From an uncultured virus (IMG/VR IMGVR_UViG_3300046529_000479) (lineage: Duplodnaviria; Heunggongvirae; Uroviricota; Caudoviricetes), in IMG/VR virus record IMGVR_UViG_3300046529_000479: DNA of 64,000 nucleotides; one strand, given 5' to 3'. The translations under genes were made by a program, and so were the position numbers. The notes beneath the pieces are model-generated. The model did not search any database. It saw nothing but the letters and a program-made list of their open reading frames with translations, and had not been told where the DNA came from. Within the stretch, counting starts at the first letter, position 1. Every line of letters begins with the position of its first letter. This document shows positions 14,121 through 61,148 of this stretch, piece by piece.

Positions 14121-14122
14121 CG

Positions 14123-44698: not shown

Positions 44699-46192
44699 CT
44701 ACATCGCCTTGGCCAGCAACGTGCCGGCGATAGTCTCAGTGTTCATGCGTAGGATCGTGCTTGCCTCGACGGTGCACATCGCTGCCGCATCCGCCCGGTT
44801 AGGTGAGGACACCCCGCGCTTCTTGGCGTCCTCCTTGGTCTCGATACAAATGCGCCCCGAGAGGTCGATGAACCACTTGACGGTCTGCAGCTCGTCAGAT
44901 AGCTGCGTGTCGAGCGGGTCTAGGTCGATCAACCCTTCTTCCATCAAGTTGCGGAATGTCCACCACATCTCGGAGCGACGGTTGTTGAACTTCTGCGGAT
45001 TCAGGGCGCGACCCGATCCCTCGAAGTTACCCACCTCACAGCCGCGCTGACGCAGCCGGTCGTAGACGCCGGCACCCAGGCCGATCCCGTCCACGTTCAT
45101 GGGCACCATCAGAGGGAAGTGGCGGCTCAGGTATTTGAATGCCCGATCGGCACTCTGCATCGTGTCTTGCTTCGCCCAGCTGTCTACGTGCCGCACCTGA
45201 CCGCCACGATTGCGATAGATCGCTGTCATGTCGTCGCCCATACGGGCTACGTCCATCCCGTAACGCCCGTGAGCGAATCCGGGCAGGTCGATGGCGTGGG
45301 CGCGCACAAGCATCGACGGCGTGATCAGGTAGTCATCACTGACGTCGGGGAACTCGCCCTCCACCTTGGAGATCCACAGATTACTGCCTTCACCCCAGTC
45401 GCGACGGCGCTCGTCCACCCACGCTGGACTGGTTAGCTGGGACATGACCTCCTGCGGACAAGCCTCGCCGGTGAAGGCAGGTGTGTCGAACGCCGATATG
45501 CGGACTACGTTCCAGTCCGTCCCGGGCTTGCAGTTCATTGCGAACTCCGAGCCCGGGTCGTCTGGGTTGCCGATCGCGAGAACACGACACTCGTCGTTGG
45601 TCACGATCGACTTCACGGCGTCCCAGAGAGCTTTAGGAATGCCACACGCCTCGTCCATGATGACTAGAACGTATTGCGCATGGATCCCTTGGAACGCCTG
45701 CTCATCGTAGTCCTGCGGCTTGCGGCCCATGGCCACAATCTCTTCACCCGATCGGCCCTCGCCCATGTGCCACATACATTCCAGCGTGATCCTCCCAAAC
45801 AGGTTAGCCTGTCTGTGAGTGCGGCGTATCTCACGCCATAGAATGGTCTGCACCTGTGGCCACGAGGGCGCAGTTGTGACTACAAAGGCGGAACCGAGCG
45901 GGTGAACAGATGGGTCGAGCCACCAAGACGCGATCTTGCCAGCGATGTAACTCTTGCCCGGGCCGTGGCAAGCTTTCACGGCCGTATACTTGTTGGCTAC
46001 CGTCGATACACAGATCTCCTCCTGCTTGCTCCAGACATGAGCCCCACAGCGGTCGCGGATCCACGCTGCCGCATTCGAGCGGTAGATGCTTGGCTTCGGG
46101 TACATGTAGCGCAGCACCGCGTCTGCGGTGCCGGCTGGAAGCGAGATCCTACCGAGATCGGCAGGGTTGAGGAGTTCATTCAGGCTACTAAT
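44699..46192 (-). CDS. terL: terminase large subunit (probable ATT start at 46192; ORF track starts at 46117)
   Basis: HGPGKS Walker A, VIMDEA Walker B, GNP, GMDVAR RNase H domain, SPNRADA. Confidence 0.92.
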   Translation of the reverse strand: MSSLNELLNPADLGRISLPAGTADAVLRYMYPKPSIYRSNAAAWIRDRCGAHVWSKQEEICVSTVANKYTAVKACHGPGKSYIAGKIASWWLDPSVHPLGSAFVVTTAPSWPQVQTILWREIRRTHRQANLFGRITLECMWHMGEGRSGEEIVAMGRKPQDYDEQAFQGIHAQYVLVIMDEACGIPKALWDAVKSIVTNDECRVLAIGNPDDPGSEFAMNCKPGTDWNVVRISAFDTPAFTGEACPQEVMSQLTSPAWVDERRRDWGEGSNLWISKVEGEFPDVSDDYLITPSMLVRAHAIDLPGFAHGRYGMDVARMGDDMTAIYRNRGGQVRHVDSWAKQDTMQSADRAFKYLSRHFPLMVPMNVDGIGLGAGVYDRLRQRGCEVGNFEGSGRALNPQKFNNRRSEMWWTFRNLMEEGLIDLDPLDTQLSDELQTVKWFIDLSGRICIETKEDAKKRGVSSPNRADAAAMCTVEASTILRMNTETIAGTLLAKAM

Positions 46193-48168: not shown

Positions 48169-48858
48169 CTACTGCTGGACGACGACCTCGATCGTGAAGT
48201 CGTTTTGGTGGCAAGTCGCTGGCGGCGACATCTTCATTGTACCGCTCGACTTGTTCACGCAGAACTTGACTTCGCCGTTGCCGAGATCCTTGTCATCCTT
48301 GTCCCCCGGGCCTGGCGGGCCTGTTGGGCCTCGTGGGCCTGTTGGCCCCTTGGGCCCTGTCGGGCCTTTCATGCCAGTCGGGCCTTTGGGCCCAGTAGCA
48401 CCCTTCGGGCCAGGAGCCCCTGTTGGGCCTTTTGGCCCCGGATCGCCCTTGTCACCCTTGAGGCCGGTTGGCCCCTTGGGGCCTGTTGCCCCCTTCGGGC
48501 CTGGAGCGCCAGTAGCACCCTTCGGCCCTGGTGGCCCAGTTGGGCCCTTGGGCCCAGTCGTACCCTTGGGGCCTTTCGGGCCAGTGGGGCCTGGCTTACC
48601 AGTTGGCCCTGTTGCTCCCTTGGGGCCAGTCGGGCCGGTGGGCCCTGTCTGGTTCCACGAGACTGGCGCCTCATAAAAGCGGCACAACTCGCCAACGTCG
48701 AAGTTGACCAGACGCAAGACGCCCTTGTCTGTCGTCTCGTTGTGCAGCGCGTAGCAGCCATGGAACACGCCGTTGCTGCTCGGGATACTGGCGTTGACTG
48801 TGGTCGCGATCCCGAATGTAGCACCGGCCACGGCTAAAGCCACAATTATCTTTCGCAT
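48169..48858 (-). CDS. secreted collagen-like protein
   Basis: signal peptide after AAAGGAGG; long uninterrupted Gly-X-Y run (GPT/GPK/GAT); Cys-containing flanking domains. Confidence 0.8.
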
Positions 48859-48875
48859 CCGTCCTCCTTTCATTG

Positions 48876-50491: not shown

Positions 50492-50546
50492 TCTGTCGAG
50501 GACTCTCGTGTCTACTCCTTTCCTGGGAGGGGGCGGGGATCGGAGC

Positions 50547-50756
50547 TTAGCGTATCCCGTTCCCGTTCGCTTGCCGAGTGTTGTACTGCTTCCGGCCGTT
50601 AATGGCGTTCAGCAATCGCAAGTCTGCTCCTAAGAGTTGGTCTCCATAGCTCCGTCTTTGGGTGGCGCGTGCGACTGCCTGGTTGATGGTGCGGCCACTC
50701 GGAAGGATTGTGGTGTTTTTGTCGGGAGTCTGGTTGTATCGGGGGTTGTAACCCAT
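50547..50756 (-). CDS. hypothetical protein
   Basis: ORF in late orientation. Confidence 0.4.
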   Translation of the reverse strand: MGYNPRYNQTPDKNTTILPSGRTINQAVARATQRRSYGDQLLGADLRLLNAINGRKQYNTRQANGNGIR

Positions 50757-50762
50757 TTGTGG

Positions 50763-50966
50763 TTAAACCCTATCCCGGGAGGCATTGACTTGCTTGATGC
50801 CGTCGTAGTAGCACTCGCATTGGAGCTTGGTGTGGCCCTTGGCCAGCTGGCAGAGATGATTCCCGTCTGGGCTGGCCGCTCCGGTGCATCCCGGCCCCCA
50901 GCGGAAGTCGCAAGTTCCTTTGACTGAGGCTGGAGTGGGATCTGCCTGGGATTGGGTGGTAGCCAA
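50763..50966 (-). CDS. small Cys/His-rich protein, first gene of leftward unit
   Basis: GAAAGGAG SD before TTG; C...C...H.C....H...C.C. Confidence 0.5.
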   Translation of the reverse strand: MATTQSQADPTPASVKGTCDFRWGPGCTGAASPDGNHLCQLAKGHTKLQCECYYDGIKQVNASRDRV

Positions 50967-50969
50967 TGT

Positions 50970-51500
50970 GTCTCCTTTCGTGTGTGGCGGGTTTGTGCGT
51001 GAGTATAGCTGGCTGGTGCAGCTCGCGCCCGGCCTCGCGCGCGTGCACGCGCCCGCGCACTAAAGACTTATATCCATGGTTGTGAATTGGGGTGCCTCGT
51101 ACGCGCGCGCGCGCAAAGAGCTTTTACTACTGAATAATGAGTTTTGAATGCAACGCGCGCCCCCGGCCCCGCGCGAGGCCCGGTGAAAAAACCTTCGCCT
51201 AGGCGCACGTACGCGCGTAAGCGAGAAAATCTGCATAGAGAGGTTTGGGTCGCGGGCGTACGGGTACGCGACTGCATGTGTTTTTCAGTTTTCTAAATAG
51301 GCTACTGCACGAAAAGCCTGCTAAAATGTGGTTTTTTGTCAATGTTGTGGTTTTTGCCTGGAATATTCTGTGTAATTTTGTGTAATTTTGTGGGGTGTTG
51401 GGTTTTTGTGTCAATTATGTTGTTTAGGGGTCAATTCTGGGTTTCAACGGTCAAGACCGCTTCCGTGCCGGGACTCCGGTTTCTACATTTTTCCCACGGT
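50970..51500. other. non-coding divergence region, candidate genome terminus/pac site or origin
   Basis: transcription switches direction; AT-rich, T/G-skewed 51270-51450; tandem TGTAATTTTG x2 (51371-51390). Confidence 0.45.
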
Positions 51501-51944
51501 GATCGGCGGGTCGGCGAGTCGAGAGCTCGCGCCTCGATTACCCCGATTAGCAGGGATTTTCCGCGCTTCCCCCGCTCCCGCCCGCCCCGAGGCGTAGCCC
51601 GTCTAGGCGACGTTTACCGTTTAGGCTACGGATCTCGGTTCGGAGTTAGGCGATCCCCTCCCCGCCCCCGCGCGTACCGTTCTTCGAGCCGGAGACGGGC
51701 GCCGACGTTATCCCTCGATCGTTCGAGGCGAGAGGCGGGCGGTATTAGTCGGAGGAGCCGCGCGATCGCTACGCGCGGGCTTCGCGGGGGCGGTCTACGG
51801 CTTCCCTCGCCTCGCCCGCCTTATAGCCGCCCGGGGGACTCGATCGGACGCGCGTAGGGTCGCCGTCCCCCGTAGGTAGGGGCGGCTCCCGGGCTTTAGA
51901 GCGTAGGCGCGCGAGCCGTAGACCTTCCTTCCTTCGGCGGGCGG

Positions 51945-52068
51945 TCGGAGCCTCTTAGAGAGGCTCCGAGCGTCCCGCGAGAGGCGCGCAGGGATCGACG
52001 GGGGTCGAGAGATTCGAGGCGTTCGATTCTCTCGACCCCGCTCGATCGCGCGCGCCTCGCGCGGGACG
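51945..52068 (+). ncRNA. structured leader: 25-nt hairpin followed by ~98-nt hairpin
   Basis: TCGGAGCCTCT/AGAGGCTCCGA; CGTCCCGCG/CGCGGGACG, GAGGCGCGC/GCGCGCCTC, GATCGA/TCGATC, GGGGTCGAGAGA/TCTCTCGACCCC. Confidence 0.5.
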
Positions 52069-52106
52069 GGGAATCCTCCCCGCCCCGACGAACGAAGGAG
52101 AGAAAA

Positions 52107-52514
52107 GTGTCCGTATCTAAGAAAGACGCCGCGAAAATCTCGAAGCTCGCGGCCGAAGGTAAGTCCGACGCCGCGATCGACGCGGCCGTCTATCCCGGGG
52201 AGACGGGAAAGTGGAGTACGCGGGAGATCTCCTACGCGGCGCGGCGCGACGCCTACGCGGCTTCGCTCTCGCCGAACGGCCCGAAGTACGACGGGCCGAT
52301 CGTCCCTTCGCGCCTCGGCGCGTTCGAGACGATCGAGAGCGTTCGAGCGTCCGACGTCGCGGCGGTACTCGCCGAGTCGCCGAAGCTACGCGCCTACGCG
52401 CTTCCGATCGTCTTCGGCTTCCGCCCGACTCGGGCGAACGTCGATAGGCTCGGCGGCTTCGCGGTCGCGCGGAAACGCCCCGGGCGGCTCGCCTCGGGCG
52501 CCTCGCGCGCCTAG
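52107..52514 (+). CDS. first early protein, unknown function
   Basis: ACGAAGGAG SD, GTG start; no His/Gln/Cys/internal Met. Confidence 0.7.
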   Translation: MSVSKKDAAKISKLAAEGKSDAAIDAAVYPGETGKWSTREISYAARRDAYAASLSPNGPKYDGPIVPSRLGAFETIESVRASDVAAVLAESPKLRAYALPIVFGFRPTRANVDRLGGFAVARKRPGRLASGASRA

Positions 52515-52719
52515 CAGGGATCGAGCGGGGGAAGGGGAGAGGCTCGCGCCTCGCCCCTTCGCCCCGGTCGCGTCCCGCGACCGAACGCGGAAGGAAGGAC
52601 GCAAAGCCTCGCGATCGCGAAGCCGCGCGTCCGGTTTCCGCACGCCCTCGATTCGGAAGGGTAAGCGCAAAAGAGGAAGCTACAAAAAGTTTCCTCAAAA
52701 ACGAAGGAGGGTCACGAAA

Positions 52720-53058
52720 GTGGCAAAACGGAAAAAGCCGGCAAAAAGCAGAGGGCCGGTATCATCGAAGTCCGCAAGAAGTCCGGGACAAAGCCGCGAC
52801 TCAAAGATAAGCGCGGCAACCGGAACGCCCGCAATCGACCTCGAACTAGCAAGGGCCGAAGCGTGCGACGCATTCGTCGGGAACACAAACGTAGTGTTCT
52901 TCAAGAAGAAGCGCACTAAGCGTACAAAGCTCGGGCCTGCCGGATCATGGTACAATGGCCGAGCTGAGAGCGGCGAAAAGTGCGGAGCACTCGCGATAAT
53001 GTCCAGATACAAAGACGGTAAGCGAGTTCACCGCTGCGCGAATCACATCGCGTCGTAA
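52720..53058 (+). CDS. basic early protein with Cys/His cluster
   Basis: ACGAAGGAGGGTCA SD; K/R-rich; C...C...HRC..H. Confidence 0.65.
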   Translation: MAKRKKPAKSRGPVSSKSARSPGQSRDSKISAATGTPAIDLELARAEACDAFVGNTNVVFFKKKRTKRTKLGPAGSWYNGRAESGEKCGALAIMSRYKDGKRVHRCANHIAS

Positions 53059-53071
53059 CGACAAAGACGCG

Positions 53072-53113
53072 CGTTGAAGGTCGAGCGACGGACAACCCGC
53101 TCGGCCTTGAACG
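53072..53113 (+). repeat. G.G hairpin element 1 (GGACAAC loop)
   Basis: CGTT-G-AAGGTCGAGCG acggacaacc CGCTCGGCCTT-G-AACG. Confidence 0.8.
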
Positions 53114-53137
53114 ACAAACGAAGGAGGGTACAAACAG

Positions 53138-53299
53138 ATGACATACGCGATCCAGTCGTCAGGCAGCGGGCAGCCGCCCGTAATGACGAACATCATCGCT
53201 GAGTTCGCGACGGAAGCAGAAGCCGTCACGACACTCGCTCGACTATTCAAGTCGAGTCCAGTTCGCAAGAACTACCTCAGCATCGTGAAAGTCAAGTAG
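53138..53299 (+). CDS. 53-aa hypothetical protein (not in ORF track)
   Basis: SD GAAGGAGGG; MTYAIQSSG...SIVKVK. Confidence 0.6.
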   Translation: MTYAIQSSGSGQPPVMTNIIAEFATEAEAVTTLARLFKSSPVRKNYLSIVKVK

Positions 53300-53343
53300 C
53301 GAGCTGAAGATCGGGCAAGGACAACTGCCCGGTCTTGAGCACG
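53300..53343 (+). repeat. G.G hairpin element 2 (GGACAAC loop)
   Basis: GCT-G-AAGATCGGGCA aggacaac TGCCCGGTCTT-G-AGC. Confidence 0.8.
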
Positions 53344-53369
53344 ATACCGATACACGAAAGGAGGGTACA

Positions 53370-53468
53370 GTGTACAAATGGAAAGACGCTTGGCCGACAT
53401 ACATCACTGCTCTGCCAATCGTCGTAATCGCATGTGCGCTCATTGGGCGCGCGATCTCACATCTGTAG
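53370..53468 (+). CDS. 32-aa membrane peptide (not in ORF track)
   Basis: SD AAAGGAGGG; MYKWKDAWPTYITALPIVVIACALIGRAISHL. Confidence 0.55.
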   Translation: MYKWKDAWPTYITALPIVVIACALIGRAISHL

Positions 53469-53511
53469 CAGAAGCTGCGTCGTGGACAACCGACGCGGCT
53501 TGTACTACAGA
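53462..53511 (+). repeat. G.G hairpin element 3 (GGACAAC loop)
   Basis: TCTGTAGCA-G-AAGCTGCGTCG tggacaac CGACGCGGCTT-G-TACTACAGA. Confidence 0.85.
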
Positions 53512-53530
53512 CAACAAACGAAGGAGGGTC

Positions 53531-53860
53531 ATGAAGCCAGAGTTCATAGAGAAAGTCTGGACAGCAACTGACCGCGAAGTCAAAGCTGACTGGATCGCCA
53601 ATCAGTATGAAGGCGAATATGTCAGCCCTCACTGGACAGTGGCTGGCGTCCAAGGTGATCAGATCATCTTCTACTGTTACGCAGAGCAACTCGGATATGA
53701 AATCTGTGTCTGGATCAGTGATTTCGATCCTAGCAACCGCTATGGCGGCGGCGAAGGGCTTGAAAGCAGACCGACATTGCGAGGAATCGTAATGTGTATT
53801 GAAGGCGAATGCGGCTGGATCAGCATCAAGGATCACAGTATCGTCAACAACTGCAACTGA
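53531..53860 (+). CDS. hypothetical protein
   Basis: ATG directly after ACGAAGGAGGGTC. Confidence 0.65.
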   Translation: MKPEFIEKVWTATDREVKADWIANQYEGEYVSPHWTVAGVQGDQIIFYCYAEQLGYEICVWISDFDPSNRYGGGEGLESRPTLRGIVMCIEGECGWISIKDHSIVNNCN

Positions 53861-53902
53861 TAGAAGCTGCTACTCAGGACAACGAGTAGCGGCTTGTGTC
53901 AG
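53857..53902 (+). repeat. G.G hairpin element 4 (GGACAAC loop)
   Basis: CTGATA-G-AAGCTGCTACTC aggacaac GAGTAGCGGCTT-G-TGTCAG. Confidence 0.85.
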
Positions 53903-53948
53903 AAGACATGACACAGTACCACAAAATGAAAAATCGAAGGAGGGTCAA

Positions 53949-54272
53949 ATGAAAGGCGCATTCATCACCATACTGCTACTCGGCAGTCTCTTTGTCGGGG
54001 GCGGAGCATTCGCACTTCACGGGATCACCGCCGCGAGCGACAAGTCAAGTGCTCAGGTCGATCCCAACACTTTCGCAGTCCTGCCAATCGGCGTCAGCGA
54101 AAGCTACGTGAGAAGTTCATTCGGAACTCCTCAGAGCAGCGACGACACAACTGTCGGCGGCTACGGCAGCACGTTGAACAGCCGTTGTATCTACTACGGC
54201 ATCCTCAGCCAGAACGGCAGTTATCAGTTCTGCTTCGACAACGGCAAGCTCGTCTCGAAAAGCAGGTATTGA
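53949..54272 (+). CDS. exported SmpA/BamE-like small domain protein
   Basis: N-terminal TM/signal; IG.S...V...FG.P...Y.....F.F.NGKL..K. Confidence 0.55.
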   Translation: MKGAFITILLLGSLFVGGGAFALHGITAASDKSSAQVDPNTFAVLPIGVSESYVRSSFGTPQSSDDTTVGGYGSTLNSRCIYYGILSQNGSYQFCFDNGKLVSKSRY

Positions 54273-54318
54273 GTAGCAGCTCTGTCAGATAGAATCCGAC
54301 AGGGCTGGTGTTCAATAC
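54266..54318 (+). repeat. G.G hairpin element 5
   Basis: GTATTGAGTA-G-CAGCTCTGTC...GACAGGGCTG-G-TGTTCAATAC. Confidence 0.85.
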
Positions 54319-54339
54319 AAACGAAGGAGGGTCAGCACG

Positions 54340-54627
54340 ATGGAAGCCAAGAAAGGCGAAGTCTGCGTGGTGTCCAGCATTCCTAATTGTGATTTCTGCA
54401 ATCAGGAGGGCACGAAGACGCCAGGCCCGTACGACTTCAAGACGCGGTTTGGCCCGTGGGCTCACGGATGTGAGGATCACTGGAAGCTGTACCGTGCGTT
54501 CGACAGCCTCGGTGTTGGGCAGGCTCAGATCTGGATCACGAAAGATGAGGAGCCGAAGCACGCGCCAGGTACACTAGGCGCGATCATGTCCAGCAAGACG
54601 AACAGGTTGAACAAAGAACTGGGGTAG
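54340..54627 (+). CDS. hypothetical zinc-binding protein
   Basis: CDFC...YD.KT..GPWA..C..H...LG.G. Confidence 0.6.
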   Translation: MEAKKGEVCVVSSIPNCDFCNQEGTKTPGPYDFKTRFGPWAHGCEDHWKLYRAFDSLGVGQAQIWITKDEEPKHAPGTLGAIMSSKTNRLNKELG

Positions 54628-54685
54628 TGACCAGTGGCTCCGTCATGGAGATCAGGGACGTTCGACATGGCGGGGCCGGTGTTCA
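54628..54685 (+). repeat. G.G hairpin element 6
   Basis: TGACCA-G-TGGCTCCGTCATG...CATGGCGGGGCCG-G-TGTTCA. Confidence 0.85.
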
Positions 54686-54705
54686 TCACCAACAGAAGGA
54701 GGGTC

Positions 54706-55059
54706 ATGAACGAGGAGCAAGCAGATTTCCTTGTGAAGTTCCGCAAGGAGAATCCGCCACAACCAGTACCAGGACGAGAAATGACTGAGGAGCAGTTTCG
54801 TGCTGATCTCAATGGCGTAGCAGAACGAACAGCCAAAGACATCGGTGGCGACTATCCTCACATCGACACAGGCTTCGAGTGCTACGTGTACAAGATTGAC
54901 GGCAGATTCGTCGGCTACATCTACATGGGTGAAGCTGGCGAGTGGGCCCTCATCGACAAGTTCGATCAGTTCGACACCTGTGACGAACCGGACACACAGC
55001 TTCACGACGCACCCGAGTATCTCCAACGCGTCAAAGCGCTGTCGCCATACAAACGGTGA
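54706..55059 (+). CDS. hypothetical protein
   Basis: ATG after AGAAGGAGGGTC. Confidence 0.65.
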   Translation: MNEEQADFLVKFRKENPPQPVPGREMTEEQFRADLNGVAERTAKDIGGDYPHIDTGFECYVYKIDGRFVGYIYMGEAGEWALIDKFDQFDTCDEPDTQLHDAPEYLQRVKALSPYKR

Positions 55060-55102
55060 CCAGCGGCGGGCCGGGAGTTGTCCCCCGGCCTGTCGGTGTT
55101 CA
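55057..55102 (+). repeat. G.G hairpin element 7 (loop GTTGTCC)
   Basis: TGACCA-G-CGGCGGGCCGGG agttgtcc CCCGGCCTGTCG-G-TGTTCA. Confidence 0.85.
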
Positions 55103-55120
55103 TCAAACGAAGGAGGGAAC

Positions 55121-55489
55121 ATGGCAATTGTAAGCTGTTTCGACTGCCCACAGTCCATGATGACGACAGGTGTCGCAGGCGACGATGTCAGAACGTGGAT
55201 CTGCTCGGAGTGCGCTCACGAGCGCGGGCTCACGCCTAAGCTCGCAGAGCGTGTTGCGATCGAAGACGCCAAGTGGGGCAACCCATGCTGCATCTGGGAA
55301 GCATGTCCCAAGGACGTCATGAAGCAGATCCTGATTCCGATCACAGACAACATCGAGATCGAGGCAGAGAACGCCGGCATCGAAGAAGACAATCCCAACC
55401 GCGACTCATGGATGGCACACAAGATCTCTCATCGACTCGTCGGCGTCATGAACCACATCTGGTTCGGCCCGGAGGTATTGCTCCGATGA
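55121..55489 (+). CDS. hypothetical protein with zinc ribbon
   Basis: SD ACGAAGGAGGG; CFDC...CSEC. Confidence 0.6.
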   Translation: MAIVSCFDCPQSMMTTGVAGDDVRTWICSECAHERGLTPKLAERVAIEDAKWGNPCCIWEACPKDVMKQILIPITDNIEIEAENAGIEEDNPNRDSWMAHKISHRLVGVMNHIWFGPEVLLR

Positions 55490-55728
55490 CAGTAGGCAAG
55501 TTCGAGATCAGAACGTGGTACGACGGCAGAACCCACAACCAGTTCCGCAAAGTAGCGGAAGTCGAAGCACCGACCGCACTTCATGCCCTGCGTGCTTACG
55601 CGGGGAACAGGCAAGCGATCATTCGACAGCGCAAAACGGACTACAGTGACGCCAAAGACTGGACAGCCACGATCCTAAACAAGAACGGAAAGCTGCGCGA
55701 CTACATCGCTGTTCGGGTACGCAACTGA
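55486..55728 (+). CDS. hypothetical protein
   Basis: ATGA-coupled (MTVGKFEIR...). Confidence 0.55.
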   Translation: MTVGKFEIRTWYDGRTHNQFRKVAEVEAPTALHALRAYAGNRQAIIRQRKTDYSDAKDWTATILNKNGKLRDYIAVRVRN

Positions 55729-55769
55729 TCAGCCGCTGGCACATCGCAGAGTGTGTTGGCGGGTGCTCA
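55726..55769 (+). repeat. G.G hairpin element 8
   Basis: TGATCA-G-CCGCTGGCACA...TGTTGGCGG-G-TGCTCA. Confidence 0.85.
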
Positions 55770-55828
55770 TCCGAGCATCATCCGAAGGAGGGTCAAATGA
55801 TACGACTGGGGAACAGAACCGATCGAAG

Positions 55829-56053
55829 GTGAGTGTCGTGAAGTTCATCTTCATCGACATTCCCGGCTCGATTCTCATACTGTGTTTCATTCTCGGCTGG
55901 TGGTCGAGACATAACAAGGTAGTCAAGACCGTGTTCTTTGACGGGAACGAACCAGTGAAGTCGAAGCCGATTACGCCCAAGCGGATTCCAGTTCCCAAGG
56001 CTTCAAAGCCGAAGCTGTACATCGTTCGAGATCAACCAGGTAGTGAAGAGTGA
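55829..56053 (+). CDS. small membrane protein, preceded by an 11-codon mini-ORF (55797-55832)
   Basis: hydrophobic N-terminus; GTGA overlap with the mini-ORF stop. Confidence 0.5.
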   Translation: MSVVKFIFIDIPGSILILCFILGWWSRHNKVVKTVFFDGNEPVKSKPITPKRIPVPKASKPKLYIVRDQPGSEE

Positions 56054-56098
56054 ATAGCGGCTCCACAGGTCAGCTACGATCTGTGGGGCCGGTGTTCA
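56051..56098 (+). repeat. G.G hairpin element 9
   Basis: TGAATA-G-CGGCTCCACAGGTC agctac GATCTGTGGGGCCG-G-TGTTCA. Confidence 0.85.
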
Positions 56099-56126
56099 TA
56101 AGACGCCACGAAGGAGGGCCAGCAAA

Positions 56127-56510
56127 ATGCCACTCAACATCTATGTGGAGCGAAAAGGCAAGCGTCGCAAGGATCTCATCTGGGATCAGCAGATGCTTGA
56201 CTTCTGCTACACCGTGGCCTACATGGACGAAGATGCTGACCGGGAATATCAGACTGGCAAGAAGTTCGCTGACCTCGGCACCTGGACATTCGATCCAGAC
56301 AACAAGCTCGGATCGAAGTGGTCAGGGCAAGAGTTCGAGCACTATGTCACTTTCCAATTCGGTGTGTACTACATCGAGGGTGATTGTGGCCTGGTGGAGA
56401 AGGGCGAGCAAGTTGTTAAGCACAAGCATCGCTTCCTTCATTCACAGATGGAAAAGCCAGTCGTGTTCATGCCCGGAGACAGAATCGTCGCATGGAGGTC
56501 ACACAAGTGA
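56127..56510 (+). CDS. hypothetical protein
   Basis: SD ACGAAGGAGGG. Confidence 0.6.
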   Translation: MPLNIYVERKGKRRKDLIWDQQMLDFCYTVAYMDEDADREYQTGKKFADLGTWTFDPDNKLGSKWSGQEFEHYVTFQFGVYYIEGDCGLVEKGEQVVKHKHRFLHSQMEKPVVFMPGDRIVAWRSHK

Positions 56511-56728
56511 TCAAGGTCAAGATGACGCAAGAGGCATTCAACACCATGACGACTGCACAGAAGCACAGCATTGATGTTATCCTGAACAATCCGAAACTTG
56601 AAAACGTGGTTGTTCAGAAAGGCGGACTCGATCTGCCAGACAACTATCTGTGCTTCACGATGCACTGGACGGATCATGGCCAGCCGATTTATGGCGGCAT
56701 CTCGCCCCAAGGCCAGGTGTCGACATGA
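56507..56728 (+). CDS. hypothetical protein
   Basis: GTGA-coupled, GGAGG SD. Confidence 0.55.
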   Translation: MIKVKMTQEAFNTMTTAQKHSIDVILNNPKLENVVVQKGGLDLPDNYLCFTMHWTDHGQPIYGGISPQGQVST

Positions 56729-56961
56729 TCACGTTGGAGCAAGCAAAAAGCCTGAAGCGTGGCCAGATCCTTCACCACGACATCAACAGGAACAGCGATG
56801 GCACTTGCCAACGCTGGAAGGTGAATGGTCAAGTGCAGACATGGAAGCGTGAGCCCAACCGGGTTCGCGTGCCCATTAAACACGGGCTGAGGCACTACGA
56901 TGCTCTTGATAGCCAAGGTGATCTCGATCTCGTTCATCTCGAAAGCGAGTGCCCGGGATGA
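56725..56961 (+). CDS. hypothetical protein (MITLEQAK...WKVNG.V.TWK..P..V.VP.KHGL)
   Basis: ATGA-coupled. Confidence 0.55.
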   Translation: MITLEQAKSLKRGQILHHDINRNSDGTCQRWKVNGQVQTWKREPNRVRVPIKHGLRHYDALDSQGDLDLVHLESECPG

Positions 56962-57101
56962 GACTCGTTGGCTACTGCACCGTTTGCCACAAGATCAAGT
57001 ACGTCCAAGTCACCGGCCACGACCTGGCCATGGCTCAGGCTCGTGGTAGCAACGTCGTGTCTGGAATCTGCGACGACTGCGAGAAAGAGCAAAGGAAGTG
57101 A
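56958..57101 (+). CDS. 47-aa zinc-ribbon protein (not in ORF track)
   Basis: MRLVGYCTVCHK...GICDDCEK; ATGA-coupled; its stop begins element 10. Confidence 0.55.
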   Translation: MRLVGYCTVCHKIKYVQVTGHDLAMAQARGSNVVSGICDDCEKEQRK

Positions 57102-57147
57102 GTAGCGAGTCTGTCCGTCCGATGGATCGGATAGGCTCGGTGCTCAC
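57098..57147 (+). repeat. G.G hairpin element 10
   Basis: GTGAGTA-G-CGAGTCTGTCCG...CGGATAGGCTCG-G-TGCTCAC. Confidence 0.85.
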
Positions 57148-57179
57148 CAGGCACCAGTAACAACAACCGAAGGAGGGTT

Positions 57180-57869
57180 ATGCCACCATTGATCGAGACG
57201 TCACCGGGCGTGCTGGAGTTCGCACTCGATCGTGTGGGTGATGACGCAGTTGAGATCCTGGAGCTGTCGTACAACGACATCCCCTGGAGCTGGATCTGCG
57301 GCACGCTCACGCGAGCCTGTGTGCTCAACGGGCATAAGAAGCCCGAGGGCTGCGCTCTCGGCCTGATCGGCATGAACGGCGGTCTGGCTAGCTTCTCTAC
57401 CAGAGTAGTGAGGCTGTGGGACAACGAGATCGGCAAGGACGTGCCGACTGGACAGTACGAAGTCCAGGGCATCTTCGAGCAGAGCGATCTGTACGCGACT
57501 TCAACGACAGCAGAGGCGATCGTATGCCTCGCGCTGGCGATCCCGAAAGAGATCACCGTCAGTAAGGCTGGCTGGTACAACGAAGTCGATGAGGCGTACG
57601 ACAAGTGGGCGGATAACATCCCTCACGACGTTTCAGGAGCTGCCGACTGCGTTGTCGCCTACAACGACGACGACATCACGAGAGGCGATGCAGCGTCGTG
57701 GTTCTGCAACGCCATCGGCATCGCACGTCTGCGCCGATCCGCCGGCAAGCAGGCCTCGACGTGGATGCAGGACGAGGACGGCTGTGAAGATCCGTCTTGT
57801 CAGCAGTGCTACCCGACCAACAGCGACACCGAAGACGCTTTGGTCGAGATGTACGAGGGCGACGCCTGA
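57180..57869 (+). CDS. hypothetical protein, paralog of 60576-61088
   Basis: W.CG.L....NG.KKP.GCA.GL, LALAIP, YND.....A..WF. Confidence 0.65.
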   Translation: MPPLIETSPGVLEFALDRVGDDAVEILELSYNDIPWSWICGTLTRACVLNGHKKPEGCALGLIGMNGGLASFSTRVVRLWDNEIGKDVPTGQYEVQGIFEQSDLYATSTTAEAIVCLALAIPKEITVSKAGWYNEVDEAYDKWADNIPHDVSGAADCVVAYNDDDITRGDAASWFCNAIGIARLRRSAGKQASTWMQDEDGCEDPSCQQCYPTNSDTEDALVEMYEGDA

Positions 57870-57909
57870 CCAGCGAGTCCATCCCAACAAGGATGGGCTC
57901 GGTGTTCAG
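57866..57909 (+). repeat. G.G hairpin element 11
   Basis: CTGACCA-G-CGAGTCCATCC caacaa GGATGGGCTCG-G-TGTTCAG. Confidence 0.85.
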
Positions 57910-57932
57910 ACAGAACACCAGAAGGAGGGTCA

Positions 57933-58208
57933 ATGGACGAAGTCAGATCAGACAAGTTCACGGTCAACGACGATCTTGAGACGATCTCGTTTCACGACGA
58001 AGCGCAGCCGACGCTCATGCTGGCATGGATCAGCGACGATGCGAAGAGCGATCGCGGCTCGTTCTTCATCGCGGATTCAGAGAGCGAAAAGATCTTCAAG
58101 GTCACCCCGAGTCTTCACGACGATGGCATCAGAGTGATCCTGAAAGTCGATTCGCTCCACCGAGACGGCGTTGTGGAAGACAGCGCCATGATCATCAGCG
58201 TGTTCTGA
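57933..58208 (+). CDS. hypothetical acidic protein
   Basis: SD AGAAGGAGGGTCA. Confidence 0.6.
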   Translation: MDEVRSDKFTVNDDLETISFHDEAQPTLMLAWISDDAKSDRGSFFIADSESEKIFKVTPSLHDDGIRVILKVDSLHRDGVVEDSAMIISVF

Positions 58209-58411
58209 TGCCACAGATAGTTACTCTCCATCAGGACGAGTCAGAGATCATCGTTGCTGACACCAAGGGCAACCCGATGTTCAAGCTCAAGTTCGATAAC
58301 ACGGACGCGGGCTGCGAGCTGATGGTTGACATCTGGTACCCGAAGCTGCTCAGCCCCGACAAGTGGGTGGGCAACTTCGGAGACGAACCATTCATCTACG
58401 AGCCAACCTGA
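58208..58411 (+). CDS. hypothetical protein
   Basis: TGATG-coupled (MPQIVTLHQD...). Confidence 0.55.
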   Translation: MPQIVTLHQDESEIIVADTKGNPMFKLKFDNTDAGCELMVDIWYPKLLSPDKWVGNFGDEPFIYEPT

Positions 58412-58457
58412 TCAGCGAGTCTGTCCGTCCGACACGACGGGTAGGCTCGGTGCTCAG
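58408..58457 (+). repeat. G.G hairpin element 12
   Basis: CTGATCA-G-CGAGTCTGTCCGTC cgacac GACGGGTAGGCTCG-G-TGCTCAG. Confidence 0.85.
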
Positions 58458-58485
58458 CCGAGCATCAACCACGAAGGAGGGGAGT

Positions 58486-59016
58486 ATGGCAACGACAGCC
58501 TGGACAGAGGATCCAGCATCGGAGAGCCAGCTAGAGTTCATCCACGACCTCTCACAGAAACACGAGATGTCGGATGAGCAGGCTGAGTTCATTGCCCGAG
58601 TCCATCTCGGTGGACGGAAGCTCACCAAGGGTGAGGCCAGTCGAATCATCGACGGGCTAAAGGCATGTCCCAAGAAGCAGGTCAGTAGAGATTGGCCTGA
58701 TGTCCCGGCCGGCAGGTATGCCGTGGTCGATCCGATGGACGATGTCCTGAAGTTCTACCACGTAGACAAGCCGACTGAGGGCAAGTGGGCAGGCTACACC
58801 TTCCTGAACGTCCGTGCTTCGGATGAGCGTTATCCGATCAAAAACACGGAGCACAAGAAGTCCATCATGACCGAGATCTCCAAGAATCCGGCAGAAGCCA
58901 GCATGCGCTACGGGCGTGAGCTGGGCAAGTGCGGGATTTGCGGACGGACTCTCACCGATGAGCAGAGTCGAGCAAGAGGCATCGGCCCGATCTGCGCAGC
59001 GAAAGAGGGTTGGTGA
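58486..59016 (+). CDS. DUF6011-like zinc-finger protein
   Basis: CGICGRTLTD..S..RGIGP.C; N-terminal AS..Q..FI..L...LTK.EAS.II. Confidence 0.65.
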   Translation: MATTAWTEDPASESQLEFIHDLSQKHEMSDEQAEFIARVHLGGRKLTKGEASRIIDGLKACPKKQVSRDWPDVPAGRYAVVDPMDDVLKFYHVDKPTEGKWAGYTFLNVRASDERYPIKNTEHKKSIMTEISKNPAEASMRYGRELGKCGICGRTLTDEQSRARGIGPICAAKEGW

Positions 59017-59219
59017 TGGCGCAAGTGAACATCAGCGTGACTCGTGTCGGACACGTCGTGACGGTGAAGACCGCCAGCAACAAGGAGATCTTCAGCGTTG
59101 AGTACAAGAACCGAGGAGAGATCATCGATTACTGTCTCTGGCTCGCTCGTACTGGCAACGTCAACGCCGACCGCCAGACGATCGTGGATCTGCTGAAGGC
59201 CAACAAGGTGATCACATGA
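59016..59219 (+). CDS. hypothetical protein
   Basis: TGATG-coupled. Confidence 0.5.
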   Translation: MAQVNISVTRVGHVVTVKTASNKEIFSVEYKNRGEIIDYCLWLARTGNVNADRQTIVDLLKANKVIT

Positions 59220-59350
59220 ACGAGTTTCGCTGGTATCTGCGGCGACTCTCGCTCGATGAGATCCTCGGCCTAGTCAGAACAGGGAACGTGCCCAAAACGT
59301 TCATGCCTGCGATCCTCTCTGAGTTGAAGAGAAGGAAGTACGCATCATGA
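59216..59350 (+). CDS. 44-aa hypothetical protein (not in ORF track)
   Basis: ATGA-coupled at both ends; MNEFRWYLRRLSLDE... Confidence 0.5.
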   Translation: MNEFRWYLRRLSLDEILGLVRTGNVPKTFMPAILSELKRRKYAS

Positions 59351-59544
59351 GCTACACGTTCACTCACTGGAGCGATCGCTTCGGCGATCAAGTCAGCAAG
59401 ATGCGCGAGGCTGAAACGGGTGAAATCTACCTGACCATGCGCGACGAGTGCGACGAAGATCTGTTGCACGACTGGTACATGGTGGGGATGAAGCCAAAGG
59501 AAGCAGCCAAGCGGTTCATGGCCGGGGAAGCGCGTGCGAAATGA
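59347..59544 (+). CDS. hypothetical protein
   Basis: ATGA-coupled. Confidence 0.5.
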   Translation: MSYTFTHWSDRFGDQVSKMREAETGEIYLTMRDECDEDLLHDWYMVGMKPKEAAKRFMAGEARAK

Positions 59545-59620
59545 GACACGTGTATCTTCTGCTGTTCGAGATCCTCGTTCTGCTTCATCATGTCAAGGAC
59601 GCGATCGAGCTGGTGACGCC

Positions 59621-59845
59621 ATGAGTACACCAAGGCCGATTCCAGTTCCTCATTCCAGCAATGTCAAGTCGATCTCTTGGGACAGTGACAAGAGCATCAT
59701 GTACGTCACGTACAAGAGCGACAAGACGTACGCCTACACAGGCGTGCCATACCAACGTGCCGTTGTGGCTGCTAACGCTCGAAGCGTCGGCAGCTATATC
59801 AACAAGCACATCAAGCCGCACTACCCCGTACAGCAGGTCGGGTAG
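59621..59845 (+). CDS. KTSC-domain protein
   Basis: SSNVKSI.WD.....YVTYKS..TYAY.GVP......A.SVGSY.N.HIK..Y. Confidence 0.8.
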   Translation: MSTPRPIPVPHSSNVKSISWDSDKSIMYVTYKSDKTYAYTGVPYQRAVVAANARSVGSYINKHIKPHYPVQQVG

Positions 59846-59894
59846 TTGCAGCTCCCGGTGTCTCTGCGGTCACCGGGGGCTGGAGTCACCCGAC
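59837..59894 (+). repeat. G.G hairpin element 13
   Basis: GTCGGGTAGTT-G-CAGCTCCCGGTG...CACCGGGGGCTG-G-AGTCACCCGAC. Confidence 0.85.
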
Positions 59895-59925
59895 TCCGAG
59901 TACAGCGAAGGAGGGTCATGCTGAA

Positions 59926-60174
59926 GTGACGAATCCGCCGAAGCTCCTCAAGATCAAAGTCGTTCCGTATGATGAGGCTGATGTCACAGCTGCGATCCAG
60001 CTTCCGGTGTTACCAGAAATGATGGATTGGGAGCACGACCTCATCTTCAAGATCGACAACCGTGTGATCTTCGGCTTATTCATCCATCGCCACGAGAGCG
60101 GTGACATCGGAGTCGAATTGTTCGACCCGGATAGCACCGAGCCCGTGGCGACTCACCAGTTCACGGAGGCATAA
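59926..60174 (+). CDS. hypothetical protein, preceded by a 3-codon mini-ORF (59918-59929)
   Basis: ATG CTG AAG TGA overlaps the GTG start. Confidence 0.55.
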   Translation: MTNPPKLLKIKVVPYDEADVTAAIQLPVLPEMMDWEHDLIFKIDNRVIFGLFIHRHESGDIGVELFDPDSTEPVATHQFTEA

Positions 60175-60434
60175 TGGTCGTACAGCAGGAACAGGAGAAC
60201 GTCGTCTTGTACAACATCGAGGCGATCGTGGTCGAGGAAGCAGGCGACAACGCCATCTATTCGATCGCCAAAATGAGACCTACAACCGGCACTGACCGAT
60301 TCAAGCCCGTCGAGTTCTTCAACGACGAGCATGAGAATCGTTGGGTGAAGTTCTGGCCCAAGAACGGCCCTGCAAAGGGCAAGCAGGCCAGCATCCCGAT
60401 CGAACGCCTGGTCATGGTGGTGCACAGCAAGTGA
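60174..60434 (+). CDS. hypothetical protein
   Basis: TAATG-coupled, GGAGG SD. Confidence 0.55.
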   Translation: MVVQQEQENVVLYNIEAIVVEEAGDNAIYSIAKMRPTTGTDRFKPVEFFNDEHENRWVKFWPKNGPAKGKQASIPIERLVMVVHSK

Positions 60435-60507
60435 CACAACCGCCAATCTTCCTATCGCCGCGTTGGTTCCGCATAATGTGGCTAATTATTCGGGAGCGTT
60501 GGCGAAA

Positions 60508-60549
60508 GTGATCAGCGGGTCTGTCCTTCGGGGCAGGCCCGGTGCTCAT
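60508..60549 (+). repeat. G.G hairpin element 14 (cUUCGg loop)
   Basis: GTGATCA-G-CGGGTCTGTCC ttcg GGGCAGGCCCG-G-TGCTCAT. Confidence 0.85.
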
Positions 60550-60575
60550 GAGAGTACCGTAACGAAGGAGGGTCA

Positions 60576-61088
60576 ATGCCGAGAATGACAGCCAAGGTCG
60601 TCCTGGAGGAGTCCATCCTGGACATCAGGGCCGGACACTGGCTCTGTGGCGAGCTGATGCAGGAAGCAGAAGCCAACGGAAACAAGAAGCCAGATGGTTG
60701 TGCCGTCGGCCTCGCGGTCATCAACTCGAAGCTCGCGCGTGTCGTCATCGCGAAGTCTGACGACTACGATTCGGGTTTGATGGCATACTGCCCGTCGATC
60801 AACAACCCGTCGGTCTACTTCAGAGGCGACCAGAACTACCCCAAGGCCAGATTGAAGGCACTGGAGAAGTCGCTGCTTGCACTCGCGTTGGCGATCCCTG
60901 TCGATGCTCGACCCGTGACGACAGAATACAGAGGCGACGAGTACGAAGACCAACATATCAGCAACGATGACATCAAGGGCTACAGCATCGAGCAGCTGGA
61001 GTCGCTCATCATCGAGTACAACGACTCCAGCCTCGACACGGGCACGGCGATGAACTGGTTCAAGGCAGCGTACAGCAGCCTCAAGTGA
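60576..61088 (+). CDS. hypothetical protein, paralog of 57180-57869
   Basis: shared motifs NG.KKP.GCA.GL, LALAIP, YND, WF. Confidence 0.65.
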   Translation: MPRMTAKVVLEESILDIRAGHWLCGELMQEAEANGNKKPDGCAVGLAVINSKLARVVIAKSDDYDSGLMAYCPSINNPSVYFRGDQNYPKARLKALEKSLLALALAIPVDARPVTTEYRGDEYEDQHISNDDIKGYSIEQLESLIIEYNDSSLDTGTAMNWFKAAYSSLK

Positions 61089-61126
61089 GCTGCGAGTCTA
61101 CCCACTAGGGTAGGCTCGGAGTTCAT
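61085..61126 (+). repeat. G.G hairpin element 15
   Basis: GTGAGCT-G-CGAGTCTACCC acta GGGTAGGCTCG-G-AGTTCAT. Confidence 0.85.
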
Positions 61127-61148
61127 CAGAACTCCAGAAGGAGGGTCA

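Follow-up and report, generated by a model that had tools for sequence, protein, structure and literature searches.

Several systems are known in which a nucleic acid is kept free of a short word. Vertebrate viruses suppress CpG against ZAP and UpA against RNase L, and mRNAs lacking ACA are resistant to MazF. What these cases share with the locus described here is a two- to three-letter word avoided because an immune or toxin nuclease reads it, or might; they differ in that avoidance occurs at the RNA level, is genome- or gene-wide and usually amounts to a few-fold, whereas the loss of CA and TG that we describe is strand-symmetric, local and nearly total. The locus lies in a 64,000-nt stretch of DNA (hereafter, the window) from an uncultured virus of the Caudoviricetes (IMG/VR record IMGVR_UViG_3300046529_000479). 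Restriction-site avoidance in phage genomes offers a second parallel, since there too selection rids DNA of short words that enzymes would recognise; here, however, one full dinucleotide step is purged, from a single unit of ~1 kb, and palindromes that contain neither CA nor TG are in excess. The first-step-transfer (FST, pre-early) region, part of the terminal repeat of phage T5, reportedly lacks EcoRI sites. If the purged zone enters the cell first, it would resemble the T5 FST region in being a terminal block of earliest genes acting before the remaining genome arrives (annotation of NC_005859). The T5 region, however, is 10 kb long with many genes and is normal for CA and TG (observed/expected 0.97 and 0.91), and staged entry has been demonstrated in T5 whereas the phage in the window is known from sequence alone.

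A weaker version of the feature is found in Wifcevirus, a genus of E. coli phages. The terminal repeat of phage Ro157lw is 3533 bp long, and a CA/TG-poor zone runs from position 1800 to 3380 of it, stopping ~150 bp short of the end, with observed/expected ratios of 0.32 for CA and 0.35 for TG against 1.17 elsewhere. In both phages CA and TG are lost jointly while CG and TA double (reaching 2.18 and 1.30 in the Ro157lw zone). The small zone proteins do without Met, Cys, His and Trp in Ro157lw and without Met, Cys, His and Gln in the window; in Ro157lw ORFs 2113-2415 and 2523-2813, Met, Cys, His and Gln total 0 and 1 (one Gln). The Ro157lw zone lies ~5-6 kb upstream of the terminase gene, and the two phages have in common a PolIII-alpha-type polymerase (30% over 932 residues), ThyX, an SDR and a distant TerL. 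On the other hand, depletion is 3-4-fold in Ro157lw and 20-fold or more here; the Ro157lw zone measures ~1.6-2 kb, covers several genes on both strands, is not enriched in GC, lacks the GGGACTCC motif and encodes proteins dissimilar in sequence. Its location in a terminal repeat is documented, whereas the zone in the window is known from assembled contigs only. Full-text literature searches, with passages of PMC11990801, PMC6563267 and bioRxiv 10.64898/2026.10.21.760668, turned up no account of a CA/TG-free phage region.

The features of the zone and its surroundings are listed in Table 1. The original prediction that 1.1 kb of this DNA is nearly free of CA and TG proved correct in its counts and positions. 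The three CA sites are at 51551, 51989 and 52515; the TG sites, at 52108 and 52212, are the GTG start and the sole Trp codon of ORF 52107-52514 (ORF135), as had been claimed. The left edge is sharp, with the final CA/TG sites at 51495 and 51500, and the right edge is gradual: CA returns at 52602, the next TG is the start codon at 52721 followed by one at 52864, and CCA reappears on the + strand at 53003, all in agreement with the prediction.

Table 1. Features of the CA/TG-free zone and adjoining DNA (positions in the window; copies A and B are the two zone copies described in the text).
Feature	Position	Strand	Remarks
T/G-rich repeats left of zone: three TTTTGTGTAATTT-type and GTCAAT repeats	51330..51445	.	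From sequence; repeat family D5
Boundary motif GGGACTCC (other strand GGAGTCCC)	51470..51477	.	One copy at zone edge in 10/10 genomes compared
CA/TG-free zone	51502..52601	.	3 CA and 2 TG in 1100 bp; GC 70%
Conserved motif ATTAGCAGGGATTTTCC	51546..51562	+	Carries first retained CA; repeat family D1
Non-coding block of 260 bp	51686..51945	.	~94% identical between copies A and B; flanks barely align
54 nt missing from G001	51976..52029	.	Both ends of the G001 record fall here
GCAGGGAT copies	51986-51999, 52512-52525		Carry the other two zone CAs; repeat family D1
Ribosome-binding site AAGGAG	52095..52100	+	6 nt 5' of the GTG start; from sequence
ORF135	52107..52514	+	First gene of rightward early block; no Met (after start), Cys, His or Gln; one Trp
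Gradual right edge	52602..52863	+	CA returned; sole + strand TG is the GTG start of ORF 52720-53058

The five CA/TG sites of the zone compare with a mean of 148.9 (sd 10.6, minimum 125) in 607 other 1100-nt windows (z -13.5), and with a mean of 115.9 and a minimum of 87 in 5000 mononucleotide shuffles of the zone itself. The dinucleotide odds ratios that had been proposed as a check gave observed/expected values of 0.05 for CA, 0.03 for TG, 1.54 for CG and 1.44 for TA in the zone, against 1.07, 1.12, 1.08 and 0.61, respectively, in the whole window, where GC content is 58%. Of the ten strand-symmetric dinucleotide classes, CA/TG alone drops as low as 3-5% of its mean in any 500-nt window of records G001, G004 and G005, the floor for the remaining abundant classes being 0.47 of their own mean. 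These data confirm that the depletion is real and far beyond chance. The zone does not show the under-representation of specific 4-6-bp palindromes that characterizes restriction-site avoidance. GATC (13 versus 3.0 expected), TCGA (19 versus 3.0) and CGCG (43 versus 16.3) are in excess and GCGC is also over-represented; the scarce palindromes are CATG and TGCA (0 each, by definition), CCGG (6) and GGCC (4, versus 16.3 expected). The suggestion that the purge evades several defence systems at once is thus weak as originally put, since removal of CA/TG excludes, by simple arithmetic, only about half of random 6-mers, and GATC, TCGA and CGCG abound.

In all ten genomes compared, TG abounds in the 200-300 nt to the left of the boundary motif, and a sigma-70-like promoter directed leftward (51414 to 51385) lies within the T/G-rich repeat region of the window. 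It was the single promoter-like site found by a promoter/terminator scan of 50800-53200, which returned zero terminators in the zone. Motif ATTAGCAGGGATTTTCC is also present in copy B (G001 ~65503 and ~64587) and in G002 (~63425). The ACGAAGGAG context of the ribosome-binding site is repeated before ORFs 52720 and 53138 (families D16 and D18). The exact runs common to both copies of the 260-bp block are 54, 46 and 39 nt long, and this block is probably the crossover of the co-assembly. Folding revealed no RNA structure in it on either strand (z -0.21 and -0.22), and a search against Rfam yielded just two miRNA-hairpin rows, far below gathering scores; neither a known RNA family nor an unusually stable fold was thus found. 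An inverted repeat with 25-nt arms (51993-52047) overlaps the 54 nt missing from G001, and a Logan contig of run X5 spans 51913-52380.

In the window and in record G001, two related ~65-kb phage genomes, 78-87% identical, are joined head to tail, and the join lies within the zone. The original prediction had named a chimeric or misassembled segment as a possible refutation. The join is there; the second junction, however, carries a 74%-identical copy of the zone (copy B) that is equally CA/TG-free and has a right edge patterned like that of the window, and the single-genome relatives G004 and G005 contain exactly one zone each, with minima of 1 and 0 CA/TG per 300 nt (background means 37-39, sd 6.6). 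The depletion is therefore real despite the join. Normal CA/TG in relatives had been named as a further refutation, and here the outcome was mixed. G002, a close relative, is only partly depleted (ORF139 has 28 CA/TG versus 46.6 expected), its zone-homologous region being nonetheless the lowest in CA/TG of its genome. Yet near-total depletion is found in 25 distinct lineages more distant than G002: all loci with an ORF160-type gene (7/7 viral and 24/24 metagenome, or 31/31, forming 25 clusters at 95% nucleotide identity) are CA/TG-free, their zones containing 3 CA and 31 TG in the sense strand of 8739 nt. The zone has a constant place, where the late and early gene blocks face away from each other, 3.3-5.4 kb upstream of the terminase gene; in the ORF160-type loci the distance is 3.3-4.5 kb. 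The 10 kb preceding the terminase gene contained no zone in a group with 50-56% TerL identity (3/3 loci), and none was found in positions 1-8000 and 54001-65764 of PB1 (19.8 of 65.8 kb). As read from these sequences, the depletion marks one piece the size of a transcription unit, at a fixed genome position, in 25 or more lineages. It stands at the head of the early genes. We infer that the unit is immediate-early; by analogy, it may be at or near the first-entering end.

The depletion goes against the coding convenience of the genes it covers. Synonymous recoding with amino acids fixed and the codon usage of the window (2000 trials) placed 33-51 CA/TG in each zone ORF, with trial minima of 19-34, compared to 1-4 observed; the depletion thus exceeds what the proteins require. 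In the six zone ORFs, CTG or TTG is used for none of 65 Leu codons, GTG for none of 66 Val codons and GCA for one of 183 Ala codons; CCA (0/47), ACA (0/49) and TCA (0/68) are likewise absent among Pro, Thr and Ser codons. CA or TG occurs at two codon junctions in total, the genome-wide rate being 0.186 per codon. All six ORFs lack Met, Cys, His and Gln, of which 11-17 would be expected per ORF. The alignment of copies A and B, over 863 bases, has 212 mismatches. When 212 substitutions were placed at random, a mean of 58.8 CA/TG arose (minimum 39 in 2000 trials), as opposed to the 7 observed, indicating that the depletion is actively maintained. Altogether, these data show selection on the nucleotide sequence that holds the depletion in place at the expense of protein coding. 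Codon or tRNA effects were ruled out by reasoning, because the purge extends to non-coding DNA and across codon junctions. Avoidance of sigma-70 promoters, of Chi and of PAMs was dismissed on reasoning alone (we know of no CA/TG PAM), as was that of primase sites, TG being normal in the terminal ~150 bp of Ro157lw.

The zone proteins are only 31-65% identical across lineages. Neither ORF135 nor the ORF160-type protein matched Pfam or PHROGs; ORF135 had three matches, itself included, among 5.8 billion proteins, single-protein searches of viral contigs with ORF135 and ORF 53378-53860 found no relatives, and blastn of window positions 50500-54500 against 50,697 phage records gave zero matches. 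Profile comparison did not establish homology between ORF135 and the ORF160 family (probability 0.56, E 0.1). A C-terminal YSGRG stretch is common to the G002 zone protein and ORF160. The predicted structures of ORF135 and ORF160 are small and all-helical, with weak leads of the HTH type. Foldseek against PDB found nothing below E 0.6, the top rows being paired, Tc3 and SETMAR domains (E 0.6-4.7). The best Z in a wide VIA-align search was 3.2 for ORF135 and 6.6 for ORF160, a range that the tool terms common, with winged-helix rows at Z 5-6; in Atlas, HTH clusters scored 0.78-0.81, within scores of up to 0.84 that are leads only.

Since CA and its reverse complement TG are lost equally, we infer that selection acts on the CA:TG step of the duplex rather than on RNA. 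The explanation we favour, at somewhat less than even confidence, is that the zone is a "stealth" cassette, maintained by selection, which keeps the earliest-expressed DNA refractory to a CA:TG-reading activity at the onset of infection. In it, the CA:TG base-pair step has been purged from a stretch of duplex and its small gene, at the head of the early genes, which would be exposed before the remaining genome is in the cell or protected. The activity could be a nuclease or other DNA-targeting function of the host; alternatively, it might come from the phage itself and be aimed at host DNA. That CA/TG is the only class affected, and symmetrically on the two strands, speaks for this reading, as do the constant genome position, the single zone per genome and the counterpart in Ro157lw, a phage with known ends. 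As the rest of the genome is normal in CA/TG, the model needs either staged entry or later protection. The partial depletion of G002 and the absence of a zone in the TerL 50-56% group and in the examined parts of PB1 weigh against it. So does the continuation of contigs through the boundary motif, where no pile-up of contig ends was seen, metagenome contigs extending 54-2299 nt beyond.

A purge that overrides amino-acid choice and, in some lineages, the ATG start, and that recurs across lineages and in an E. coli genus, points to an agent that exerts strong selection on each site as infection begins; to our knowledge, no agent fitting this description has been described, nor do we know of an enzyme that reads only CA:TG. 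Conceivably, though we hold this more loosely than the cassette itself, bacteria or these phages deploy a nucleic-acid-targeting activity specific to the CA:TG step, against which phages of unrelated hosts (soil bacteria and E. coli) evolved dinucleotide-free immediate-early cassettes. Such an activity, if real, would parallel, in prokaryotes, the sensing of dinucleotides by ZAP or RNase L, and escape from it would distort protein composition and even sacrifice the AUG start codon. The purge may also help explain the resistance of Wifcevirus isolates to nearly all restriction systems tested. It provides a simple sequence mark by which the earliest-acting cassette could be located in uncultured phages, and reintroducing CA/TG would be an experimental handle on a host or phage function that could reveal a new defence or takeover mechanism.

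The leading alternative, which we regard as unlikely, is a constraint at the RNA level: the mRNA of the unit would have to be free of UG and CA, either to survive an early endoribonuclease (a host abortive-infection toxin or a phage host-shutoff RNase) or to exclude every NUG start, a TG-free sequence being one without any NTG start codon. The ORF160-type units are arranged as expected for a transcript. Their order is CAACTCA repeats, an ORF of 155-183 aa, a terminator and GGGACTC(C/A), the boundary motif after the terminator having the form GGGACTCC or GGGACTCA; the zone extends from just past the promoter-like CAACTCA repeats up to the terminator. About 10 of 23 rows have a 5' CCCCC-N4-GGGGG hairpin, and 18 of 24 a putative terminator (hairpin plus T-run). 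In 8 of 24, CA/TG resume 0-3 nt past the T-run. Because zone edges match predicted transcript edges at these loci, an RNA-level constraint fits them as well as a DNA-level one. To the right of copies A and B, moreover, sense TG remains depleted for ~300-700 nt after CA has recovered. Nevertheless, with an RNA reader the equal loss of two mutually reverse-complementary dinucleotides would need a coincidence, whereas a reader of duplex DNA explains it directly. In copies A and B, the purge is just as complete over the 600 bp of non-coding sequence, with no promoter identified upstream, and both dinucleotides are depleted in the divergent units of Ro157lw, on both strands. The start codons argue against the version in which the purge secures one unique start: in-frame NTG is absent from 8 of 24 loci (7 clusters) and from locus L026, where a Shine-Dalgarno sequence precedes ATA or ATC in place of the ATG of relatives. 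Eight lineages apparently start at ATA or ATC.

Less probable still is a phage that modifies CA/TG sites in its own genome but has to leave the unit unmodified, for example for transcription from the incoming genome. This would account for a purge at the dinucleotide level confined to one unit, and the window does encode ThyX, an SDR, a small methyltransferase and a borderline match (24.1 bits against a cut-off of 25) to the DUF1599 "nucleotide modification associated" domain. The zone, however, does not co-occur with three of these genes, though another enzyme might take their place: G004 and G005, which carry the zone, have no homologue of the SDR, the DUF1599-like gene or the methyltransferase (tblastn, E 1e-4), while the latter two are present in G002, where depletion is weakest. 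The proposed tie to the 6.7-9.7 kb gene cluster is therefore not supported. Of the cluster genes, Ro157lw matches only the SDR (26% over 124 residues); ThyX, shared with Ro157lw, lies outside the cluster. In addition, the methyltransferase is of a small-molecule type (Methyltransf_11), CA and TG are ordinary genome-wide, and the promoter-like motifs adjoining the zone contain CA.

About as improbable, or slightly more so, is a form of self-immunity, in which the HTH-like zone protein would be a DNA binder of very low specificity, a global roadblock or silencer nucleating at CA:TG, whose own gene is site-free. The property does travel with the gene in every ORF160-type locus, and both zone proteins are modelled as small and all-helical with weak HTH-type leads in Foldseek, VIA-align and Atlas. 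Every structural lead, however, is within the noise range stated by the tools, and HTH proteins usually recognise longer sites. Furthermore, 600 bp of the zone in copies A and B is non-coding, the Ro157lw zone covers several unrelated genes, and the G002 homologue of ORF135 lies in merely partly depleted DNA.

Neutral mutation or repair bias, such as biased gene conversion from T:G to C:G in a terminal repeat prone to recombination, is very improbable. It would agree with the raised GC content, with the enrichment of CG and TA (the transition products of CA/TG) and with a sharp left and gradual right edge, but no single mutational route explains the losses. Escapes are not limited to transitions: Leu is encoded by CTC, a transversion from CTG, in 60 of 65 zone codons, and C<->G transversions are the commonest difference between copies A and B (58/212). 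CTG and GTG, whose transition product changes the amino acid, are absent instead of retained, and GC is not enriched in the Ro157lw zone.

Finally, that the zone is an assembly artefact or a foreign chimeric insert can be practically discarded: the join of two ~65-kb genomes and the G001 contig ends do fall inside it, but both junction copies are depleted over their full length, independent contigs (G004, G005 and 24 from metagenomes) carry the zone at an equal relative position, and 13 public runs contain at least half of the sampled words of the stretch. The Logan contigs, from four runs, end at blocks common to both copies.

The zone, a segment of the window almost free of CA and TG, contains three CA and two TG, as the original prediction had counted, the TGs being the GTG start and the sole Trp codon of a gene designated ORF135 (coordinates in the table below). 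Across the 607 other 1100-nt windows, CA+TG averages 148.9 ± 10.6 and never falls below 125 (z = -13.5 for the zone); shuffling the zone sequence 5000 times gives 115.9 on average, with a minimum of 87. When the ten strand-symmetric dinucleotide classes were compared in G001 (the IMG/VR record matching the window) and in the related virus records G004 and G005, CA/TG was the only class ever to drop to 3-5% of its own mean. Within the zone CG and TA are raised (observed/expected 1.54 and 1.44, the latter vs 0.61 in the window) and GC content is 70% vs 58%. Among tetranucleotides, CCGG (6) and GGCC (4) lie 3-4-fold under the expected 16.3, while GATC, TCGA and CGCG exceed expectation 3-6-fold. 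All three CAs fall inside a conserved (T)AGCAGGGAT motif, found again in the second zone of G001 (copy B), in the related record G002 and, as AGCAGGGG, in locus L018 of a relative; the motif may mark where transcription units start, as a promoter or binding site.

Features of the window in and around the CA/TG-free zone and of genes discussed in the text
Feature	Coordinates	Strand	Remarks
FAD-type oxidoreductase, HAD-like protein, SDR, borderline DUF1599 domain, small methyltransferase	6712-9684		gene cluster
SDR	8091-8882		matched in Ro157lw
PolIII-alpha-type polymerase	9961-13332		matched in Ro157lw
ThyX	13877-15031		~180-aa N-terminal extension; matched in Ro157lw
TerL	44699-46117	-	
Collagen-like protein	48169-48873	-	between zone and terminase gene; Gly-Pro-Thr/Lys repeat, signal-like N-terminus
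CA/TG-free zone	51502-52601		
(T)AGCAGGGAT motif	51546-51562		CA at 51551
Block shared by copies A and B	51686-51945		260 bp, ~94% identical; exact runs of 54, 46 and 39 nt
(T)AGCAGGGAT motif	51986-51999		CA at 51989
ORF135	52107-52514	+	TG at 52108 (GTG start) and 52212 (Trp codon)
(T)AGCAGGGAT motif	52512-52525		CA at 52515
First CA right of zone	52602		
First TG right of zone	52721		next start codon; then 52864
CCA resumes	53003		
DUF6011 protein	58363-59016		

The window phage is a myovirus of ~65 kb with genes for sheath, tube, portal and major head protein; it also encodes a PolIII-alpha-type polymerase, a primase-helicase and ThyX. Late genes point leftwards from ~50966 and the small early genes rightwards from ORF135, so the control region that the zone fills is divergent; it lies 5.4 kb upstream of the terminase gene. 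A good ribosome-binding site precedes ORF135, whose aligned homologues are conserved at 79%, 58% and 43% identity. By TerL, the closest isolates are Arthrobacter and Streptomyces phages (~40% identity); sequencing runs containing the window sequence are soil and rhizosphere metagenomes.

Relatives were surveyed through 23 TerL-related viral loci; in 8, the sequence reaches 6.5 kb or more upstream of the terminase gene. A zone is present in the five whose TerL is 57-62% identical: it measures 648-746 bp, or more in L022, and has a GC content of 69-75% (59% over the longer span of L022). In the other three, with a TerL identity of 50-56%, no zone lies within 10 kb upstream. The five zones carry another gene, of 155-183 aa and on the terminase strand (ORF160-type), for which homology to ORF135 is not demonstrable. 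Searching with this gene added 2 viral and 24 metagenome loci. All 31 ORF160-type loci (25 clusters at 95% nucleotide identity) are CA/TG-free: stretches of 141-468 matched nt contain 0-2 CA/TG, compared with a density of 0.10-0.19 per nt outside; summed, they hold 3 sense CA and 31 sense TG in 8739 nt (the coordinates of L026 in these counts were placed by eye). A single zone is present in each of G004 and G005. The depletion is only partial in G002 (TerL 82% identical), whose ORF135 homologue contains Met, Cys, His and Gln at normal levels, and whose zone-equivalent region is still the most CA/TG-poor stretch of its genome.

Read 5'→3' in the sense of the ORF, the ORF160-type loci begin with a CAACTCA-type repeat array, which in about 10 of the 23 rows lies directly against the zone. 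A CCCCC-N4-GGGGG hairpin often follows, and then the ORF, preceded by its Shine-Dalgarno sequence. Of 24 rows, 18 continue with a hairpin and T-run, and in the remaining 6 the boundary motif itself makes the hairpin. After a gap of 5-8 nt stands this motif, GGGACTCC (GGGACTCA in 4 loci), and finally a conserved promoter-like stretch directed at the late genes. In eight of the 24 rows, CA/TG resumes 0-3 nt past the T-run. Eight of the 24 loci (7 clusters), and L026 as well, lack any NTG in the open frame, having ATA or ATC after the Shine-Dalgarno sequence where relatives have ATG. To judge from the sequences, ATA/ATC apparently serve as start codons in these nine loci. The loci are L026, L048, L051, L054, L057, L058, L060, L065 and L067, with a GGAAAGGAAG-type Shine-Dalgarno, and their 'IAT...' N-termini line up with the 'M...' of relatives. 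The 0-600 nt past the zone in relatives (e.g. L018 3800-4600, L026 5300-5970, locus coordinates) hold ~8-15 CAACTCA(A)...TAAGC-type repeats directed at early genes, together with a few in the opposite orientation (TTGAGTTG), towards the zone gene. Such arrays, which could be phage-specific promoters or iterons, are absent in this form from the window.

CA and its reverse complement TG are lost equally, which points to the duplex being read; the strictness at each site, by which even ATG is lost, points to a reader of the CA:TG step itself, every site being costly; and confinement to a single early unit points to a time at which this piece alone must function. For these reasons we tentatively propose, at somewhat less than an even chance, that the zone is a stealth immediate-early cassette that would escape a DNA-targeting activity reading CA:TG, probably aided by early or terminal entry. 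A constraint on the zone transcript at the RNA level would account for the coincidence of zone and predicted transcript and for the TG-only tail right of the zone in A and B; we consider it unlikely. Modification by the phage of its own DNA, which the original prediction had tied to the gene cluster at 6.7-9.7 kb, is a distinctly poor candidate: by tblastn (E 1e-4), neither G004 nor G005, both of which bear a zone, has a homologue of the SDR, of the DUF1599-like gene or of the methyltransferase. Self-immunity to a putative HTH-like product of the cassette, suggested by weak structural leads only, is improbable.

Selection, rather than ancestry or biased mutation, keeps the depletion in place. 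After synonymous recoding, 33-51 CA/TG would be expected in each zone ORF; 1-4 are observed. These ORFs are devoid of Met, Cys, His and Gln and of CTG, TTG, GTG, CCA, ACA and TCA codons, Leu being CTC in 60 of 65 cases, and just 2 CA/TG in total span their codon junctions (genome-wide rate, ~0.19 per codon). Placed at random, the 212 substitutions separating copies A and B would create ~59 CA/TG (minimum 39); 7 are found. The most frequent A/B change is the C<->G transversion. Mutation bias as the cause is very improbable.

The window is 99.95% identical to G001 (129,757 bp). In reverse complement, window positions 1-51975 correspond to G001 51972-1 and positions 52030-64000 to G001 129757-117787; both G001 ends therefore lie inside the zone, with 54 nt absent between them. 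Because G001 consists of two collinear ~65 kb halves (78-87% identical to each other) and relatives assembled singly (G002, G004, G005) measure 59-64 kb, with overlapping contig ends in G002 and G005, window and G001 are most likely a head-to-tail co-assembly of two co-occurring relatives, A and B, not a 130-kb genome. The crossover probably lies in their shared block. Across the 130 kb, CA/TG-poor sequence is confined to the two junctions; copy B (G001 ~65440-64500) shows 74% aligned identity to copy A and has 6-7 CA/TG. Co-assembly leaves the depletion finding intact. The worry that the segment is a chimeric insert was right about a join inside the zone, yet the second copy is equally depleted and zones occur in the single-unit G004 and G005, leaving an artefact next to no probability.

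Full-text literature searches and the Wifcevirus papers gave no account of a CA/TG-free zone of this kind. New here are the near-total form of the depletion, in an uncultured soil phage clade; its anatomy at unit level, with a conserved boundary motif; the apparent non-NTG start codons; and the evidence of ongoing selection at population scale. CA/TG depletion was not found in the first-step-transfer region of T5, nor in the parts of PB1 examined. The E. coli Wifcevirus Ro157lw (MH051335) has a CA/TG-poor zone at about 1800-3380, inside its 3533-bp terminal repeat, with observed/expected values of 0.32/0.35 for CA/TG (1.17 elsewhere), 2.18 for CG and 1.30 for TA. It ends ~150 bp short of the repeat's end, 5.9 kb upstream of TerL, and two small proteins encoded in it lack Met, Cys, His and Trp. 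The repeat (MH051335.1 1-3533) has no EcoRI or EcoRV sites and has EcoP1I sites in both orientations. Other Wifcevirus isolates are described as resistant to all restriction systems tested but EcoP1_I (PMC11990801); across different isolates, this loosely fits a model in which first-entering DNA decides. Ro157lw and the window phage have in common the PolIII-alpha-type polymerase (30% over 932 aa), ThyX, an SDR and a distant TerL. A DUF6011 protein is annotated in PB1 too, and a deep link of the soil phage clade to the PB1/Wifcevirus group is hinted at.
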